A DNA stretch of 64,000 nucleotides. Origin: Rickettsiales bacterium (lineage in GTDB: Bacteria; Pseudomonadota; Alphaproteobacteria; Rickettsiales; UBA6187). Under the pieces are notes generated by a model. That model was not told the origin of the DNA. It saw only the letters and a list, made by a program, of their open reading frames with translations, and did not search any database. The stretch lies in the NCBI GenBank assembly GCA_028223895.1, contig JAOIVE010000002.1:1463-65462 (forward strand). Reading direction: 5' to 3'. A program made the translations under genes and the position numbers. Shown one piece after another: positions 4,936 through 57,063 of the stretch (its first letter is position 1; each line of letters starts with the position of its first letter).

Positions 4936-6048
4936 ATGAATAAATTCTCATTTGAAATTAAGGCAGTTGACGGCAAATCAAGAATGGGGGTTGTAAAAAC
5001 TGCTCATGGTGAGATACAAACTCCGGCTTTTATGCCCGTTGGAACTGCAGCTACTGTAAAAGCAATGTTTCCAGAGTCGGTCAAGCAGACAGGTGCTGAT
5101 ATAATTTTAGGCAATACATATCATTTGATGCTCAGACCCGGCGCTGAGAGAGTTAACCGCTTGGGCGGATTGCATAAATTTATGAATTGGGATGGTCCAA
5201 TTTTGACAGATTCCGGTGGTTTTCAGGTTATGTCGCTATCGAAAATCCGTAAATTATCTGAAAAAGGTGTTGAATTCAGGTCTCATATAGATGGTAGCAG
5301 ACAAATGTTAACGCCAGAAAGGTCTATGGAAATACAGCATCTTCTGGGTTCTGATATTACCATGATTTTCGATGAGTGTACTCAATATCCTGCAACAAAT
5401 ATTGAGGCTGCAAAATCTATGAGATTATCTTTGCGTTGGGCGCAGCGCTCTAAAAATTCATTCATTGAGCGTAAAGGATATGGGCTTTTTGGAATTGTTC
5501 AGGGCGGAATATATGAAGATCTTCGTGCAGAGTCGGCAGAAGGTTTAAAAGAAATAGGCTTTGATGGGTATGCGATCGGAGGCTTAGCAGTAGGTGAGGG
5601 GCAGGAATTAATGTTTTCTACGCTTGATTTTACAACGCCAAATCTTCCTGAAGATAAGCCAAGATATTTGATGGGAGTAGGAAAGCCAGATGATATTGTT
5701 GGTGCTGTTTTAAGAGGTGTCGATATGTTTGACTGTGTTTTGCCTACAAGGTCAGGGCGTAACGGTCAGGCATTTACTCGCAATGGCACGATAAATATTC
5801 GCAACTCTAAATATGCTGAAGACGATTCTCCACTGGATAATTTATGTTCTTGTCCGGCCTGTAGCTCATATAGCCGAGCTTATTTGCATCATCTTGTTAA
5901 GGCTAAAGAAATATTGGGATCTATGCTTATGAGCTGGCATAATATCCATTATTATCAGGACTTAATGAGAGATATTAGAAGTTCTATATTAAGTAATTCT
6001 TTAGAAGATTTTGCCGTTAAGTTTTTTTCTGTTTATAATGCAAAATAA
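4936..6048 (+). CDS. tgt: Queuine tRNA-ribosyltransferase
   Basis: [24 protein letters not shown] and the zinc motif CSCPAC...H. Follows queA. Confidence 0.96.
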
Positions 6049-6891: not shown

Positions 6892-6895
6892 TTTA

Positions 6896-7213
6896 ATGGA
6901 TCAGTTACTAGAGATTGCAAGTTGGTTTTTTATGATAGCAGGGGCATTTTTTGTTCTGACTGGATCTTTGGGGCTTCTTAGAATGCCTGATTTTTATACC
7001 AGATTACATCCGGCTGGGGTGACTGATTCATTTGGAGCGCCTTTGATATTGGTTGGTATTGCTCTGCAATCAAGCGATTCTGTATTTATTGGTAAGATAG
7101 TTCTTCTTATTATATTCCTTTTTCTCACAGGTCCAACATCTACTCATGCAGTTGCAAAGTCGGCTATGTTAAGTGGCGTTAGACCTATTGGTAAGGGGGA
7201 TGATAAGTTATAA
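6896..7213 (+). CDS. mrpG: Mrp/Mnh antiporter subunit G
   Basis: The ATG at 6896 follows a GAGG SD (ORF-track start 6851 is probably too long). LGLLRMPDFYTRLH motif typical of MnhG. Confidence 0.8.
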   Translation: MDQLLEIASWFFMIAGAFFVLTGSLGLLRMPDFYTRLHPAGVTDSFGAPLILVGIALQSSDSVFIGKIVLLIIFLFLTGPTSTHAVAKSAMLSGVRPIGKGDDKL

Positions 7214-50035: not shown

Positions 50036-50869
50036 TTAAGAAGCTGCAGCAATATCAGGCGCGTCAACAGCTTTCATACCCACAACATGATAGCCGGAAT
50101 CAACATGAAGAACCTCTCCTGTTGTTCCGCTTCCAAGGTCGCTAAGCAAGTATACACCAGCGCCCCCAACATCTTCGATAGTGGTATTTCTGCGCAATGG
50201 AGAGTTGTACTCATTCCATTTTAATATATATCGGAAGTCTCCAATACCAGAAGCAGCCAGAGTCTTTACCGGGCCTGCAGAGATTGCGTTAACTCTGATA
50301 TTGCTTTCCCCAAGGTCTTCAGCAAGATAGCGAACACTAGCTTCTAAAGCGGCTTTTGCAACGCCCATTACATTATAATGTGGAACTACTCTTTCAGATC
50401 CAGCATATGTAAGGGTTATCATGCTGCCGCCATTTTTCATCAAAGGTGCAGCCCTTTTAGCTATGGCAGTAAATGAATAGCAGGAAATATTCATAGTCAT
50501 GGCGAAATTTTCCATACTAGTATCTATATATCTTCCTGTAAGTTCAGTTTTATCTGAATAAGCTATGGCGTGAACAATAAAGTCAATTTCTCCCCATTCT
50601 TTTTCTATAACATCAAATGTGGAATCTATGCTCGCCTGATTTGTAACATCGCATGGTAATATTATTGAAGAACCAACAGATTCAGCCAAAGGCGTAACCC
50701 TCTTTTTTAGGGCATCACCCTGATATGTGAATGCCAGCTCTGCACCTTGGTCAGCAACTGCTTTAGTTATTCCCCAAGCTAGAGATTTGTTATTAGCTAC
50801 TCCCATTATAAGGCCGCGCTTGCCTTTCATAAAAGTACCTTTTTGTGTATAAGCAGAGCTCTCACCCAT
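50036..50869 (-). CDS. fabI: Enoyl-[acyl-carrier-protein] reductase (NADH)
   Basis: GKRGLIMGVANNKSLAWG, catalytic Y...K (YNVMGVAKAALE), and ISAGPVKTLAASGI. An alternative start at 50830 is possible. Confidence 0.94.
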   Translation of the reverse strand: MGESSAYTQKGTFMKGKRGLIMGVANNKSLAWGITKAVADQGAELAFTYQGDALKKRVTPLAESVGSSIILPCDVTNQASIDSTFDVIEKEWGEIDFIVHAIAYSDKTELTGRYIDTSMENFAMTMNISCYSFTAIAKRAAPLMKNGGSMITLTYAGSERVVPHYNVMGVAKAALEASVRYLAEDLGESNIRVNAISAGPVKTLAASGIGDFRYILKWNEYNSPLRRNTTIEDVGGAGVYLLSDLGSGTTGEVLHVDSGYHVVGMKAVDAPDIAAAS

Positions 50870-50895
50870 ATATAATTATCCCTTAGGTTATTGAT

Positions 50896-51378
50896 TTATT
50901 GTGTTATTTGCCATGTTCCATCTGGCATGCGGCAGGCATTACCATATGCTTGCTCTGTTTTTCCGTCAACATTTATTGTCTGAGTATATTCACGGCAATG
51001 AGAGCCAGAACTTGTTTGATATGTGCGTGTAGGAGTCACGCTACCAGAATGACCAGTATCAGGATTTTTCCAACTCATAGAAGTTCCCGTACGATTATTT
51101 TCAAGCGCCTGTTGAGAAGTTCTCTGGTGATAAGCCATATCCGCTTTATCTAATGATGATCCTATAGAGCGCCCAACTGCAGCCCCTGCAAGTGTGCCAA
51201 GTGCAGTTCCAACTAGTTGGCCTTTGCCTTTTCCAAACTGAGAACCAACCACAGCACCGCCAATAGCACCAAGAAATGTGCCCATATCTTCTTTTCTAAG
51301 CGCACCATCTTCTCTGGTTTGGCATGATGAAATTAAAAAAATAGTTGATGTCATTATAATAAATTTCTTCAAAAACAT
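50896..51378 (-). CDS. 17-kDa-surface-antigen-like outer-membrane lipoprotein (glycine-zipper)
   Basis: Lipobox LISSC. Glycine-zipper GAIGGAVVGSQFGKGKGQLVGTALGTLAGAAVG. C-terminal Cys-containing antigen-like domain. Confidence 0.8.
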   Translation of the reverse strand: MFLKKFIIMTSTIFLISSCQTREDGALRKEDMGTFLGAIGGAVVGSQFGKGKGQLVGTALGTLAGAAVGRSIGSSLDKADMAYHQRTSQQALENNRTGTSMSWKNPDTGHSGSVTPTRTYQTSSGSHCREYTQTINVDGKTEQAYGNACRMPDGTWQITQ

Positions 51379-51514
51379 CTCAAAAACCTATAAAAATATT
51401 TAACCACAGTTAAGACATGGTACACCAAGTCCTAACAAAAAAGCAATATGACAAAATGGTATAACAAAAAAAAAATCTAATTCCAGCATAAAATCATGAA
51501 AAAGGAAGAAAATA

Positions 51515-52441
51515 TTGTCTGATTTAAAACTAGAAAGCACTTTGATGAGGCGTGTAACGTTGCTATCTGTGACTATTGCTATAATTATTGTAACTGTAAA
51601 AATAATAGCATGGTTTTTCACTGACTCGCTTAGCCTGCTTTCTTCTTTGGTTGATTCTGTTTTTGATATACTCGCTTCTTGCGTTGGATTCTTTGCTGTT
51701 AGGGTGGCTTTGGAGCCTGCTGATGAAGACCATAGATTCGGACATGGTAAGGCCGAAGATATAGCAGCTTTTTCTCAAAGTGCTTTTATAGCCGGATCTG
51801 GAATATTCATTCTGGGGGAGTCAATCAGGAGGATATTTATTCCTCATAAAATTGATAATACAGATATTGGCATATTAGTAATGCTTATATCGACGTTTTT
51901 AACCTTGATATTAATAACTTATCAGCAATATGTAATAAAAAAAACTAACTCATCGGTTATAAAGGCTGATAACTTACATTATAAGGGTGATCTTCTGGTT
52001 AATTTATTAGTTATTTTTTCATTCTTTTCAGTAAAATTTTTTGATATGCATATTGCCGATCCTTTGTTGGCATTTGTCATAGCGTTATATATTTTTAAAT
52101 GTGCATGGAAGATTGCCATTGAAGCTCTTGATAACCTTATGGACAAAGAGATGGAAGATGTTGAAAAAAAGAAAATTATAGATATTATTTTAGACCATGC
52201 GGGTGTTCTTGGTATGCATGATTTGAAAACCAGGCGTTCAGGAAGGCATCCATTTATACAGTTTCATCTTGAGATCAAAGGAGAGGTGAGCCTAAAAAAA
52301 GCGCATGAAATTAGTGAAAAAGTAGAAAAAAGTTTATTAAAATCTTTTCCAAAGGCCGAGATTTTAATTCATCAGGATCCAAAGGCGGATAAGCCATTAT
52401 CTCTTAATTACAGACAAGTGGTTCCTGTTAAGAGGAGATAA
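51515..52441 (+). CDS. Cation diffusion facilitator family efflux transporter
   Basis: TTG start after AAGGAAG. SLLSSLVDSVFD and HRFGHGKAE motifs, six TM helices plus a cytoplasmic C-terminal domain. Confidence 0.88.
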   Translation: MSDLKLESTLMRRVTLLSVTIAIIIVTVKIIAWFFTDSLSLLSSLVDSVFDILASCVGFFAVRVALEPADEDHRFGHGKAEDIAAFSQSAFIAGSGIFILGESIRRIFIPHKIDNTDIGILVMLISTFLTLILITYQQYVIKKTNSSVIKADNLHYKGDLLVNLLVIFSFFSVKFFDMHIADPLLAFVIALYIFKCAWKIAIEALDNLMDKEMEDVEKKKIIDIILDHAGVLGMHDLKTRRSGRHPFIQFHLEIKGEVSLKKAHEISEKVEKSLLKSFPKAEILIHQDPKADKPLSLNYRQVVPVKRR

Positions 52442-52473: not shown

Positions 52474-52848
52474 ATGACAAATATTTTATGGGAAGCAAAT
52501 AATTTTACAAATCAAACAGATTCTGAAGATGGTGAAATATCTAATGAAGATATTGAGTCAATAAAAGAGAATGCGCATTCAGGTGATGCTGAATCTCAGT
52601 ATTTTTTAGGTCTTATGCTTGATATGGGAAAGGGGCTGGATCGTGATCCTCAGCAGGCTGTAATATGGTATACAAAAGCAGCAGAGCAAGATCATCCAAG
52701 CGCTCAGTATTTTCTTGGAAAAATGTATGATAGTCAGGAAAGTGGAATTCCAAAAGACAAAGAAAAAGCCATTTATTGGTATGAGCGTGCAAGTGCAAAT
52801 CATAATTTTTATGCAAAAGCAAAGCTTAAGGCTCTGATTGAAGGGTAG
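52474..52848 (+). CDS. Sel1-repeat (SLR/TPR-like) protein
   Basis: Two to three repeats of the A..QY.LG.MY..G.G...D...A..WY.KAA pattern. 124 aa, no signal peptide. Confidence 0.85.
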   Translation: MTNILWEANNFTNQTDSEDGEISNEDIESIKENAHSGDAESQYFLGLMLDMGKGLDRDPQQAVIWYTKAAEQDHPSAQYFLGKMYDSQESGIPKDKEKAIYWYERASANHNFYAKAKLKALIEG

Positions 52849-52965
52849 GTTCTGCAAAATAGCTTATTAGTTTAAGTTTTCTTGCATGGATTAAAAAACA
52901 ATTTTATTGAAAAATGTCTGCAAAATGTCTAAAACTCTCTGTTCTATAAGATTTTAGAGAGAGAT

Positions 52966-55900
52966 ATGAAGCCCTTACCGCAAAAATATGATACGCATGA
53001 AGTTGAAAGCAAATGGCAAAAATTCTGGGAAGAGAATAAAATCTATGCTTGGGATGAGTCTGAAGTAAGAGAAAATACATTTGTTATAGATACGCCGCCG
53101 CCGACAGTATCTGGTTTGTTGCATATGGGGCATGTATTTTCATATACGCAAGCAGATTTTATCGCTCGTTATCAGCGCATGTCGGGAAAAACTGTTTTTT
53201 ATCCTATGGGCTTTGATGATAACGGCCTGCCAACAGAGCGTCTGGTAGAAAAAACAAAAAAAGTTCGCGCATCTAATATGAGTCGTGAAGATTTTATTGA
53301 GCTGTGTAATGGAGTTTCTGAAGAGGCGCGTAAGGAATATAGAGATCTTTTTCAGTCCATAGCTTTGAGTGTTGACTGGCAGCAGGAATATCACACAGTA
53401 AGTGCGGAAAGTCGTAAAATATCGCAAATGTCTTTTCTAGACTTATATAATAAGGGCAGGGCTTATCGTAAATTGCAGCCAATGTTGTGGGATCCGGTAG
53501 ATCAAACAGCCATAGCACAAGCTGAGATTGAAGATAAGGAGATGCCAAGTCAGAAGAATTACTTGCATTTTGGTTTAGTTGATAATGACTCTGATTCCCT
53601 CTCCCGTTTACGGGGGAGGGCTAGGGAGGGGGGTTGGAGAAATTCTGACGAACTCATCAAAAATGCTAGAGAATTAAGACAGAGTCAAACTGATGTTGAA
53701 AAATTACTTTGGTCTATATTGCGTAGGAAGCAAATAAAGGGTTTTAAATTTAGACGACAACATCCAATTGAAAAATATATATCAGATTTTGCGTGTATTG
53801 AGGCCAAGCTAATAATAGAGTTGGATGGTGGGCAGCATGCGGAGCAACAGGAATACGATAAAGCCAGAACTGAATTTTTTCAAAAGGAAGGGTATCAGGT
53901 TTTGCGTTTCTGGAATAATGATTTGCTTAATAATTTAGACGGAGTTTTGGAAACGATTTGGAATGCTTTGCCTGGTGATAGTGACCCCCTCCCTAACCCT
54001 CCCCCGCAAACGGGAGAGGGGAATTCTATCAAAATTATGACTACAAGGCCTGAATTGTTAGGCGCTTGCGTTGCTGTAATATGTCATACTGATGATGCTG
54101 ATAAATATAAAGGAAAGATGGCAGTAACTCCGGTTTTTGGGGTTAAAGTTCCTATTATTGCAGATGATAAGGTTGATAAAGAAAAGGGTACTGGTCTTGT
54201 TATGTGCTGTACCTTTGGTGATGAAACGGATATTGAATGGTGGCGTGAGCATGACTTAAATACGCGCCTGATATTAAATAAATATGGAAAAATTGAAGTT
54301 AATATTTCTCAGTCTTCAATAATATTTAATGATGAGAAAAGCGCTATTAACTCTGAAAATACTATTGATATTGCAAAAACAATTTCTGCATTTGAACAAA
54401 TTCAAAATTTAAAGTCTCGCACGACTGCGCGCGCAAAAATGCTTGAATTATTAGCAGAAGATGGGGCTATATTTAAAGATCCTGAAACTGGTGTTCATGC
54501 TGAGCCATGTGCTGAGCGTTCCGGGTCTCCATTGGAAATACTTCCTACAAATCAATGGTTTGTAAAAATACTTGATCAAAAAGAAGAGCTTAAAGAAAAA
54601 GCTAAAGAATGTAACTGGTATCCAGATTATATGCGCATAAGGGTGGATCAGTGGATTGACGGTTTAAACTGGGATTGGTGTATTTCTCGTCAGAGATATT
54701 ATGGTGTGCCATTTCCGGTTTGGTTCTCAAAAAGAGCTGGCGAGGAGGGGAGGATTATTGTTGCTGATATAGACCAGCTTCCTGTAAATCCTCTTGTTGA
54801 TTTGCCAAAAGGTTATAAGGCTGATGAGGTAATAGCAGAAGCTGATGTTATGGATACCTGGGCAACAAGTTCTGTATCGCCGCAATTGAGCTCTAAAGGA
54901 ATTTCTTATTCCTCCTCCCGCTTGCGGGGGGAGGTTAGGAGGGGGGATTATTCTAATTCTTCCTCTGATGAAAATGCCCCCTCCCTAGCCCTCCCCCGTG
55001 AACGGGAGAGGGAACAAGAAGAGGAAGGATATATGATTGACGAAAATCGTCATGCAAAATTATTTCCGGCCGATTTGCGCCCTCAGGCACATGAAATTAT
55101 TCGTACATGGGCGTTTTATACAATAGTAAAAGCGCATTTACATGAAGATAAAATTCCGTGGAAAAATTTAATGATTTCCGGCTGGTGTCTGGCCTCAGAT
55201 AAGACAAAAATGAGTAAATCTAAGGGAAATGTGATAACTCCTGTTGATTTGGTTGAGTCAAAAGGTTCTGATGTTGTGCGTTTCTGGGCTTCAACGTCGC
55301 GTTTGGGAGCTGATTCTGCGTATTCTGAAGATGTTCTTAAAATTGGAAAAAAACTGGTAAATAAATTATGGAATGCAACCAAGTTTGCTGCCATACATTT
55401 GGATAAAATTGAAGAAAAGCCTGGCACTGCAATAGAAGATATTGAGTCTGGAATAATATCTGAAGAGTTGGATCTGTGGATATTAACAAAGTTAAATAAG
55501 ACTATTAAGAAAGCAACGCAAGAGTTTGATAAATATGAATATTGCAATGCTCGTGCTGCTGTTGAGGATTTCTTCTGGAATGACTTATGTGATAATTATC
55601 TGGAGCTTGTTAAAGTCAGAGTTTATGGCGAGGCTGAGGGTACTAGTAAGGCTGGTCAGAAGAGTGCGGTCTACACAATATATCATTGTTTAGATGGAAT
55701 TTTACGTTTATTTGCGCCGATTGTTCCTCATGTGACTGATGAGCTTTATACTCATATTTTTGAAGAGGAGTCAGAAGCTTTGGGTGGGTCGATAAATTGT
55801 CGTGGAACCTGGCCTATAGCTGATAATTATCCGCAAAATATAGAAGCTGAGCAAGCTGGAATAGCATGTGTAAATATATTAAATGTTATTCGTAAAATGA

Positions 55901-56145
55901 AGGCAGAGCGCAATGTTTCAATAAAATGGCCACTTAATTTTATTGCAATAGAAGGTGATAATAAATTATCTGACTCGGTGCTTAATGAGCTTAAAAATGT
56001 AACAAATGCATTAGAGGTTGTTTTTGCAAATAAAAAAGGGCAATCTGAATTTGAGCAAATAGATAAAACTGATGATGGTAAATTTACTGTAAAGGTTGAA
56101 TTTGCCAGCCAAAGCGAAGATAAAAAATTGGAAGCTGCCGTATAA
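52966..56145 (+). CDS. valS: Valine--tRNA ligase (rickettsial/archaeal type) carrying two in-frame repeat-element insertions
   Basis: DTPPPTVSGLLHMGH (HIGH), FYPMGFDDNGLPTERLVEK, TTRPE, and KMSKSKGN. The N-terminal block resembles the Rickettsia-type ValRS. The ORF stays open through both insertions. Confidence 0.95.
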   Translation: MKPLPQKYDTHEVESKWQKFWEENKIYAWDESEVRENTFVIDTPPPTVSGLLHMGHVFSYTQADFIARYQRMSGKTVFYPMGFDDNGLPTERLVEKTKKVRASNMSREDFIELCNGVSEEARKEYRDLFQSIALSVDWQQEYHTVSAESRKISQMSFLDLYNKGRAYRKLQPMLWDPVDQTAIAQAEIEDKEMPSQKNYLHFGLVDNDSDSLSRLRGRAREGGWRNSDELIKNARELRQSQTDVEKLLWSILRRKQIKGFKFRRQHPIEKYISDFACIEAKLIIELDGGQHAEQQEYDKARTEFFQKEGYQVLRFWNNDLLNNLDGVLETIWNALPGDSDPLPNPPPQTGEGNSIKIMTTRPELLGACVAVICHTDDADKYKGKMAVTPVFGVKVPIIADDKVDKEKGTGLVMCCTFGDETDIEWWREHDLNTRLILNKYGKIEVNISQSSIIFNDEKSAINSENTIDIAKTISAFEQIQNLKSRTTARAKMLELLAEDGAIFKDPETGVHAEPCAERSGSPLEILPTNQWFVKILDQKEELKEKAKECNWYPDYMRIRVDQWIDGLNWDWCISRQRYYGVPFPVWFSKRAGEEGRIIVADIDQLPVNPLVDLPKGYKADEVIAEADVMDTWATSSVSPQLSSKGISYSSSRLRGEVRRGDYSNSSSDENAPSLALPREREREQEEEGYMIDENRHAKLFPADLRPQAHEIIRTWAFYTIVKAHLHEDKIPWKNLMISGWCLASDKTKMSKSKGNVITPVDLVESKGSDVVRFWASTSRLGADSAYSEDVLKIGKKLVNKLWNATKFAAIHLDKIEEKPGTAIEDIESGIISEELDLWILTKLNKTIKKATQEFDKYEYCNARAAVEDFFWNDLCDNYLELVKVRVYGEAEGTSKAGQKSAVYTIYHCLDGILRLFAPIVPHVTDELYTHIFEEESEALGGSINCRGTWPIADNYPQNIEAEQAGIACVNILNVIRKMKAERNVSIKWPLNFIAIEGDNKLSDSVLNELKNVTNALEVVFANKKGQSEFEQIDKTDDGKFTVKVEFASQSEDKKLEAAV
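53596..54022 (+). mobile_element. About 427-bp element: 39-nt GC-rich terminal inverted repeats flanking a DUF559 (Vsr-like PD-(D/E)XK endonuclease) domain, in-frame within valS
   Basis: TIR-L is 53596-53634 (TCCCTCTCCCGTTTACGGGGGAGGGCTAGGGAGGGGGGT). TIR-R is 53984-54022 and is its reverse complement apart from 2 substitutions and 2 one-nt run-length differences. Bases 53665-53970 encode ARELRQSQTDVEKLLW...KFRRQHPI..YI.DFAC...LIIELDGGQH...VLRFWN, the DUF559 pattern. Confidence 0.8.
54910..55013. mobile_element. About 104-bp cargo-less (MITE-like) copy of the same inverted-repeat element, in-frame within valS
   Basis: TIR-like arms at 54910-54947 and 54977-55013 are separated by about 28 bp. 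The right arm's reverse complement is near-identical to TIR-L of the DUF559 element. Confidence 0.75.
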
Positions 56146-56175
56146 ATATAGCTGTATAAATATAAAGGAGCCGAG

Positions 56176-57063
56176 ATGCGTCTTGTTGTGCTTTGTTTAC
56201 TAACTTTGATGCTTTTTTCATGCGTTGCTGATGAGGAAGTGGAAAAGAAAGTTAAGCATAATGGCGTTATAATAACCGGCTGGAATAAAGTAAAAACTCC
56301 TACTCTTAAAAATCCACAAGTTTATGGATCTTACAGTGCTGGATGTTTTGATGGCGCAGAAGCTTTGCCTTCTTCGGGATATGGATATCAGCTGGTGCGT
56401 AAAGGCAGAAATCGTTTTTATGCTCATGAATCAATGATTAATTATTTAGAAAAATTTGCCAAAAAGGTTAAAGATGATAATAATGCCACATTGCTTATTA
56501 GCGATTTATCTCAGGCTCGTGGCGGCCCTCCTGATATTAATAAATCTAAGCATTTAAGTCATCAGACAGGTCTTGATGTTGATATATGGTTCAGATTTTT
56601 AGAAGATGATGAAAAATTAGAAAAAAGCGAAGGTTCTCCATCTGTTGTTAACTGGAATAAAACAAAAATAGATCCTGTCTGGTGGAAAAAAGAGCATCGG
56701 GATATATTAAAATATGCAGCATCATTTCCTGAAGTTGAGAGGATTTTTGTCAATGCTGCAATTAAAAAAAGATTATGTAAATATCATGCGAATGAGGAGT
56801 GGATGGCAAAGATTCGCCCATGGTGGGGGCATTCAAGTCATTTTCATGTGCGTATAGCCTGCCCCGATGATAGTAGTCATTGTAAGGATCAGGCTCCTGT
56901 ACCAAAAGGCGATGGCTGTGATGAAAGCCTTGATTGGTGGTTTTCTCAAGAGGCAAAAAATAAGTTAAAAGAAAGCGCGACTAAAAAACCTAGATATCCT
57001 GTTTTGCCTTATCAATGCAGGAATGTTTATGACTGGGAATCTGAATCTTTGGCAAAAAAATAA
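56176..57063 (+). CDS. mepA: Penicillin-insensitive murein endopeptidase (MepA, peptidase M74)
   Basis: Signal/lipoprotein-like leader (LMLFSC). HLSHQTGLDVDIW and WWGHSSHFHVRIACP metal-binding motifs. Confidence 0.88.
   Translation: MRLVVLCLLTLMLFSCVADEEVEKKVKHNGVIITGWNKVKTPTLKNPQVYGSYSAGCFDGAEALPSSGYGYQLVRKGRNRFYAHESMINYLEKFAKKVKDDNNATLLISDLSQARGGPPDINKSKHLSHQTGLDVDIWFRFLEDDEKLEKSEGSPSVVNWNKTKIDPVWWKKEHRDILKYAASFPEVERIFVNAAIKKRLCKYHANEEWMAKIRPWWGHSSHFHVRIACPDDSSHCKDQAPVPKGDGCDESLDWWFSQEAKNKLKESATKKPRYPVLPYQCRNVYDWESESLAKK

Follow-up and report, generated by a model that had tools for sequence, protein, structure and literature searches.

A palindromic doublet in frame within valS of a Rickettsiales bacterium belongs to a family of hairpin modules that also flanks DUF559 genes

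The valyl-tRNA synthetase (ValRS) gene valS of a Rickettsiales bacterium contains two in-frame insertions, E1 and E2, and the smaller of them, E2, is the subject of this work. Both lie in a stretch of 64,000 nucleotides (GenBank assembly GCA_028223895.1, contig JAOIVE010000002.1, positions 1,463 to 65,462 of the forward strand), which is referred to below as the window. E2 is a palindromic element of two inverted arms without cargo. E1, located 1 kb upstream (window 53590-54030), encloses the sequence of a DUF559 domain between arms of the same kind. We give a probability of about 0.6 to the explanation that E2 is a non-autonomous doublet of two inverted modules, joined tail to tail, of a family that also flanks DUF559 genes, and that the arms exchange sequence, probably by means of the nuclease.

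The two inverted arms of one repeat family, reported in a preliminary description of the window, were retained with refined boundaries and a spacer of 30 nt (Table 1). Each arm follows the same plan: a C-rich stem, a 4-nt loop and a G-rich stem, which together form a 10-bp hairpin, are followed by a 3-nt linker and a G-rich tail, and the tails of both arms face the spacer. The calculated stability of a single-module hairpin is about -20 kcal/mol (-19.9 kcal/mol for the left arm of E2). The inverted repeat extends outward beyond the modules (TCTTAT...ACAAGA), which places the whole element at about 54904-55020, and the extended inverted match of 43 nt is 93% complementary. The resulting length of 117 nt equals the length that is absent from the empty alleles of relatives. 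As RNA, the entire element is predicted to fold into one long hairpin of -70 kcal/mol (z -4.2), more stable than all 200 shuffled versions; the corresponding DNA fold has -31.5 kcal/mol (z -3.5). Inspection of the ends of E2 and E1 and their comparison with the empty alleles revealed no target-site duplication, a dedicated search not being part of this comparison.

The open reading frame of valS runs intact through both elements. Its product is identical to an NCBI protein (P0001) from a 'Rickettsiales bacterium' metagenome-assembled genome (MAG), and its translation retains the motifs LHMGH and KMSKS. The Pfam analysis of the product indicated the domains tRNA-synt_1 and Anticodon_1 together with the internal DUF559, but neither an intein nor an intron-associated domain. 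Of the six frames of the 117-nt element, that of valS alone contains no stop codon, and the in-frame insertion with its peptide, as given in the preliminary description, was confirmed by the translation. Because the length of E2 is divisible by three and no stop interrupts the host frame, the ribosome most likely reads through E2 and adds a loop of 39 residues. The search of positions 52500-56500 against Rfam at permissive thresholds gave sub-threshold matches to miRNA-type hairpins only, with no family and no intron family among them. Translational bypassing or splicing of the insert was set aside, as all filled alleles are open and their insert lengths are multiples of three.

E2 is located in a loop of the catalytic domain of ValRS, which leads from the DTWATSS segment to the strand preceding KMSKS. 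In the ValRS of T. thermophilus (1GAX), this site maps to a surface loop between about residues 465 and 479, from the DTWFSS segment to the strand before KMSKS. The stretch between SPQLSSK and a 13-residue segment downstream is exactly 11 residues long in about 75 of the 120 closest ValRS proteins (e.g., GINAKYAVDAK), while the window ValRS has 50 residues at the same place. The segment is thus not a lineage-conserved ValRS loop, in line with the preliminary description. The DNA of seven relatives was compared at the valS sites. The empty alleles L123, L126 and L248 lack the 117 nt directly after the GI[NS] codon, and all inserts at this site begin after the same GI[NSC] codon. The AlphaFold2 (AF2) model of the full ValRS was of moderate quality (predicted local distance difference test, pLDDT, 69.7) and was used solely for a statement on confidence over the insert: the inserted residues (about aa 647-688) fall within the segment 626-691, which has pLDDT <50, so that the model leaves the added loop without a confident structure.

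The arms of E2 are closely related to those of E1. Between the reverse complement of the E2 right arm and the left arm of E1 (53597-53632), one of 36 positions differs, and none of 100 shuffles gave a match, so both the near-identity claimed earlier and its standing above chance were borne out; with this arm identity and no cargo of its own, E2 was correctly described as a two-arm copy of the repeat flanking the DUF559 gene. The identity was 97% between the E1 left and E2 right arms and 92% between both arms of E1, and three of the four arms in the window are 89-97% alike. The left arm of E2 is more diverged, with an identity of 76-85% to the other three. The four arms, with a GC content of about 80% in a genome of 37% GC (the window averages ~37%), are the only 36-nt segments of >=72% GC in the 64 kb, and the search with a profile of 126 arms from other genomes detected no additional one in the window. 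The right arms are read in different frames, as noted before: at offset 2 in E1, giving PLPNPPPQTGEG, and at offset 1 in E2, giving APSLALPRERE. Since the reading frame of this arm differs between the two elements, the constraint on it acts on nucleotides (DNA or RNA), not on the peptide.

Table 1. Positions in the window of valS, of the elements E1 and E2 and of their parts.
Feature	Position	Strand	Details
E2, cargo-less two-arm palindromic element	54904..55020	+	117 nt, read through as 39 extra residues (SYSSSRLRGEVRRGDYSNSSSDENAPSLALPREREREQE)
E2 left arm	54909..54946	+	TTCCTCCTCCCG-CTTG-CGGGGGGAGG-TTA-GGAGGGGGG; stem 54911-54920, loop 54921-54924, stem 54925-54934, linker TTA, G-tail 54938-54946
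E2 spacer	54947..54976	+	30 nt, AT-rich
E2 right arm	54977..55014	-	inverted copy of the 38-nt module
E1 left arm	53594..53633	+	nhmmer E = 1.5e-9
DUF559 (PF04480), Vsr-like PD-(D/E)XK nuclease domain	53653..53970	+	in frame in valS, aa 230-335, E = 3.9e-43
E1 right arm	53985..54024	-	nhmmer E = 1e-10; 2 mismatches
valS open reading frame	52966..56145	+	1059 aa, intact; hosts both E1 and E2

The preliminary description went further and proposed that the spacer of E2 resembles the inner edge of E1 and that E2 arose from such an element by internal deletion, in the manner of a MITE (miniature transposable element with inverted repeats). The similarity proved to be a 9-nt match at chance level (shuffle p 0.77 against the whole interior of E1 and 0.15 against its edges), and 129 of 369 random 29-mers of valS matched E1 as well as the spacer did. 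The deletion origin, which rests on this similarity, is not supported. It is also unnecessary, because tail-to-tail doublets with spacers of 26-66 nt are standard in many genomes. The claim of two independent insertions is likewise not established, given the likeness of three arms in the window and the matching right arms of E1 and E2 in two other lineages.

In E1 and in E2, the two arms differ in the linker between stem and tail, which is CTAGG in one and TTAGG in the other (54935-54937 and 54986-54988 in E2; 53621-53623 and 53994-53996 in E1). The pairing of the arms of either element would place a T:G mismatch in a context like that of the E. coli Vsr site, which may be a coincidence; Vsr of E. 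coli recognises a T:G mismatch in a CTAGG/TTAGG-type context. This linker was dropped as a defining feature, as it varies across the family (CTA, TTA, TCA, TCG, TTG and GCA).

The module is widespread. In a collection of species-representative genomes, the 20-mer GGGGGAGGGYTAGGGAGGGG was found at no fewer than 120 genome loci (>=120) in many phyla, and it is preceded by its hairpin partner in nearly all matches listed. Among the same matches, the GC content of the hosts ranges from 0.32 to 0.74; most hosts are Alphaproteobacteria, and the others include Gamma- and Betaproteobacteria, Melainabacteria, Bacteroidota, Planctomycetota, Chloroflexota and Saccharibacteria. An inverted partner was present within 170 nt of 37-39 of the 122 arms, compared with 0 in shuffled controls. 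The clear doublets in other genomes are 103-130 nt long and joined tail to tail. The features common to the family, i.e., a C-rich stem, a loop of 3-8 nt, a G-rich stem, a 3-nt linker and a G-rich tail, are all present in E2, which thus has the standard doublet form of the module family. In low-GC genomes, 18 of 19 arms lie outside long open frames, so a translated copy within a coding sequence is unusual for the family.

Several further observations were made on the family. Two MAGs of Melainabacteria carry a solo arm at apparently the same genomic position (L007 7716 and L018 5436); the arm of L018 lies inside a frame that is open for ~70 codons on each side and may be another translated copy. 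At several loci of Gamma- and Betaproteobacteria (L023, L032, L038, L065, L068, L084 and L092), GTAGAA follows the arm, and CTACCCCC with a second, different hairpin (CCTTCCCCCTGCAAGGGGGAAGG) comes ~20-30 nt after it. This arrangement has the appearance of a composite doublet variant bearing a GTAG-like tag. The scan of metagenomes for the 'type A' arm gave, among the 120 matches listed, mostly GC-rich contigs, with none carrying ValRS and five adjacent to DUF559; it was uninformative on close relatives.

The candidate partner of the family is DUF559. E1 contains a complete domain of this type, translated within ValRS in the loop at the start of the editing domain. All residues invariant in the family alignment are retained; in the AF2 model the core of the domain is folded (pLDDT 70-86), and the arm-encoded linkers have values <50. 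The comparison of the DUF559 profile with the PDB gave 3HRL at 1e-42 and, weakly, the 'mobile intron protein' 3R3P (E = 0.011). A survey of PD-(D/E)XK nucleases placed Vsr, DUF559 and DUF2726 in one clade, which includes a group I intron homing endonuclease (PMC3424549), and in Legionella, repeated segments containing DUF559 were described as hot spots of intragenomic recombination (PMC12308824).

The association of the arms with DUF559 is also visible outside valS. The free-standing DUF559 proteins are 110-170 aa long and come from very different bacteria. At least 65 of the 120 closest ones end with an arm-encoded C-terminal tail of the type PxPNPxPxxGEG, and several start with the arm-encoded SPSPLxGEGxGEG. 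In the reverse direction, a DUF559 gene abuts the arm at 8 of the 120 genome loci listed. DUF559 genes are thus often bracketed by the module, whereas most modules stand alone. No description of this association was found in a full-text literature search on 'DUF559'. One of the free-standing DUF559 proteins (P0232, 132 aa) is named 'lysyl-tRNA synthetase class 2' by JGI, which may reflect the transfer of annotation from a lysyl-tRNA synthetase with a DUF559 insert.

Among the relatives of the window ValRS, insertions are found at two sites. At site 1, the start of the editing domain, the DUF559 element is present in P0001, P0003, P0020, P0042 and P0103. At site 2, the position of E2, a doublet of the module family is present in P0001, P0002 and P0020, and a doublet of a related variant in P0042. 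P0005 carries a solo arm there, in contrast to the empty site of its sister P0009, with a valS identity of 82.5% nt between them; a truncated remnant eroded towards AT is left in P0028, and P0033 and P0064 have short scars. Both sites are filled in P0020 and empty in P0021, the two proteins being 85% identical. The valS alleles of relatives thus include filled, empty and eroded ones, and the filled ones are scattered on the neighbour-joining tree of ValRS. A protein search with the site-2 segment returned ValRS fragments only, none of them with the insert. In the site-2 doublet of P0042 (L124, approximately 6893-6906), an extra perfect hairpin (GGCGCGTTAGCGCC) stands between the stem and the tail of the left arm.

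Peptides of unrelated palindromic repeats occur at site 2 in P0063, P0077, P0084, P0087, P0093, P0107 and P0111. Such peptides were seen at the same two ValRS loops in P0028, P0077, P0087, P0107 and P0111, for example SLRGGEADVAIHEGES..MDCHAALAMT, CHSERSEESH, CHPERSEGS..SPQNDS and LDSRFRGNDN / WIASPSARNDG; in P0107, repeats of the SPLEGEQTSTEGVSRGGA type are present at four places. For several repeat families, the two loops of valS are general hot spots of insertion. The recurrence at these sites fits both alternatives of the earlier proposal, a target preference and tolerant loops, and does not discriminate between them.

The co-transfer of the valS stretch between the two sites was rejected, as segment-wise identities showed no excess similarity between P0001 and P0020. 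The orthology of E2 copies could not be derived from their spacers, whose similarity is marginal (window-L121 p = 0.05; L121-L125 p = 0.02) or non-significant. The monophyly of the ValRS-borne DUF559 domains was dropped as well, since their star-like identities of 44-66% are uninformative.

The identity matrix of 16 arms from six genomes showed that the arms group mostly by genome rather than by position. In L122, the right arms of E1 and E2 are 93% identical and have an unusual 8-nt loop in common; in L124 they are 92% identical with a different stem type; and in L126 both arms of E1 are 85% identical. The left arm of E2 in the window is an exception, as it is closest to the left arms of E2 (92%) and E1 (89%) in L122. 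The hairpins are kept in spite of the different stem sequences between lineages. L125 has no DUF559 in valS, and its site-2 insert is eroded towards AT. The arms are confined to valS within the window, 21 kb of L121 and 22.7 kb of L123; in L122, the P0020 genome, one extra arm is located at 5867-5898, ~40 nt 3' of the valS stop codon, at the contig end. The likeness of arms within a genome points to gene conversion or local derivation.

The order of genes upstream of valS (adh_short, 17-kDa antigen-like and cation efflux; window 50036-52441) is common to the window, L121 and L122, rearranged in L247/L248 and different in L123, which could help to place the source genome.

We propose the following explanation of E2. 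The module of 38-44 nt, i.e., a 10-bp G/C hairpin with a G-rich tail, forms a doublet around a 30-nt spacer, which sits in frame in a tolerant loop of ValRS and is most likely translated. Sequence would be exchanged between the copies of E1 and E2, most likely through gene conversion or through repair that the putative DUF559 nuclease would provoke at the arms or close to them, and the same predicted activity would explain why the family recurs at the same two valS loops elsewhere. The within-genome likeness of the arms and their 80% GC in a 37% GC genome suggest that they are still exchanging sequence or were locally derived and are not inert relics. The same is suggested by the filling of the same sites in scattered lineages and by the empty alleles, which are invariant in length although decay leaves scars.

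Several results weigh against this explanation. No conserved target motif was found on inspection, and the unrelated palindromic families at the same two loops favour loop tolerance over targeting by a nuclease. As 112 of the 120 listed copies of the family do not stand beside DUF559, the partnership is statistical and not obligatory, and P0002 (L121) has good doublet arms without DUF559 in its valS. The DUF559 domains in ValRS have a mutual identity of 44-63%, which does not exceed their identity to free-standing ones and does not discriminate between explanations. The left arm of E2, being nearer to that of a distant relative than to the other arms in the window, fits an old common ancestry equally well. 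Finally, the family is rare in the sampled DNA and gives no sign of proliferation in this lineage by copy number.

The strongest competitor, which we nevertheless regard as rather unlikely, is that E2 is a molecular fossil. In this case, one ancient insertion of E2 (and one of E1) would have been inherited vertically and lost or eroded in most lineages under weak structural or compositional constraint, with nothing mobile today. The left arm of E2 in the window and both left arms of L122 indeed share derived features (CCTCCTCCC, GGGGGGAGG and TAGG-AGGGGGG) at 89-92% identity, and the codon position of the insert is identical in P0001, P0002, P0020 and P0028. The insert of L125 looks like an eroded, truncated copy and that of P0033 like a short scar, and the marginal similarity of spacers given above agrees with common descent. 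However, such a history needs many independent losses, each restoring the exact loop of 11 residues, while the decay that is observed leaves scars of 18-34 residues. The sister pairs P0020/P0021 and P0005/P0009 differ in being filled or empty, the arms cluster by genome and not by position, and in a genome of 37% GC an arm of 80% GC would be expected to decay, which happened in L125.

Improbable, in our estimate, is the explanation by a filter of tolerant loops only, in which various small palindromic repeats land at random and survival is limited to in-frame insertions within two permissive loops of ValRS, with no target preference and no role of DUF559. It accounts well for the unrelated repeat peptides at the same loops (P0028, P0077, P0087 and P0111, with P0107 affected at four places), for the low model confidence of the inserted residues and for the loop lengths that vary elsewhere in ValRS too. 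Random insertion, however, does not fit a family that is almost absent from the other sampled DNA and present twice in valS, nor the 18 of 19 arms outside long open frames, which make coding insertions unusual. All inserts start after the same GI[NSC] codon, and the arms of E1 and E2 co-vary within genomes.

It is very improbable that the host has adopted the insert and keeps it for a benefit that valS expression or ValRS function would draw from the -70 kcal/mol mRNA hairpin or from the additional loop. In favour of this, the hairpin has a very high stability, beyond that of all 200 shuffles, and the frame is kept open; against it, about 75 relatives lack the insert, its peptide is not conserved, given that the frame of the arms varies from copy to copy, the model has low confidence over the inserted residues, and the insert is eroding in L125. 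An artefact, i.e., GC-rich segments from the chimeric assembly of what is indeed a metagenome-assembled genome, or a valS pseudogene, has a negligible probability, as independent assemblies of diverse samples and origins (Logan, NCBI and ENA: L121, L122, L124, L126 and L247) contain filled alleles, the reading frame is intact with its catalytic motifs, and the insert length is a multiple of three.

A bolder version of the doublet explanation is tentative and less likely than not. DUF559 and the conserved G/C hairpin modules may constitute an undescribed class of selfish elements across bacteria, composed of a Vsr-like nuclease and of cargo-less doublets similar to the REPINs described below. 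In this class, the nuclease would act on the modules, drive the conversion of arms, with those of E1 and E2 evolving in concert inside one gene, and time and again seed identical loops of essential genes such as valS, where the copies would be maintained as translated inserts; E2 would be a satellite maintained in trans by the upstream nuclease copy.

Among the known systems, E2 was compared with homing endonucleases of the Vsr-like/EDxHD type (I-Bth0305I, PDB 3R3P). The nuclease families are distantly related (E = 0.011; PMC3424549), and both systems are patchily present in scattered lineages, where they occupy identical sites of an essential, conserved gene. Unlike these endonucleases, E2 involves no intron or intein; the inserted sequence remains part of the mRNA and, most likely, of the protein. 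No nuclease gene is present in E2, while E1 encodes the predicted nuclease DUF559, and segment-wise identities detected no co-conversion of the flanking valS sequence. With MITEs, E2 shares its short length, terminal inverted repeats, the absence of coding cargo and ends in common with a larger, gene-carrying element. It differs from them in that no target-site duplication was seen and in that the cargo of E1 is a nuclease domain, with no recognised transposase.

The repetitive extragenic palindromic sequences (REPs) and their doublets (REPINs), which are associated with RAYT transposases (PMC3337134; bioRxiv 10.1101/2021.07.10.451892), resemble the family of E2 in several respects. Two inverted hairpin repeats with a short spacer fold as one hairpin, solo units occur alongside doublets, a partner gene of low copy number has single units on its flanks, and persistence is long-term and largely vertical. 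The partner of E2 is, however, the gene of a Vsr-like PD-(D/E)XK nuclease (DUF559) and not a HUH tyrosine transposase (RAYT), and E2 is intragenic and most likely translated rather than extragenic. The GTAG or CGTC tag of REPs was not found in E2 by eye. If the link with DUF559 is functional, a second enzyme class would stand beside the RAYTs in the biology of REP-like repeats, and DUF559, a very common protein family without an assigned function, would gain a role.

A parallel in outcome is offered by the Rickettsia palindromic elements (RPEs), which are ~100-150 bp long and are translated in frame within unrelated housekeeping genes (Ogata et al. 2000, summarised in review PMC10969869). Like them, E2 is a palindrome of Rickettsiales, 117 nt long, which forms a long hairpin and is inserted in frame, with 39 additional residues tolerated by the protein fold. 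The family of E2 differs from RPEs, which were compared by their description, in its GC content of ~80%, its presence across phyla, its low copy number in the sampled DNA and its association with DUF559. RPEs are AT-rich, and the 80% GC of E2 argues against its membership among them. As regards multi-copy dispersal, the 64-kb window contains four arms, all of them in valS. Palindromic inserts that are read in frame within housekeeping proteins have been known mainly from the RPEs. Here, an RPE-like phenomenon is found together with a candidate partner enzyme in the same gene, DUF559 being bracketed by the arms that make up the cargo-less copy. Should this link be functional, the origin of RPE-like protein inserts becomes experimentally testable; should it not be, E2 remains a new and clear-cut example of a translated selfish insertion in an essential enzyme, at a hot spot that has been filled repeatedly.

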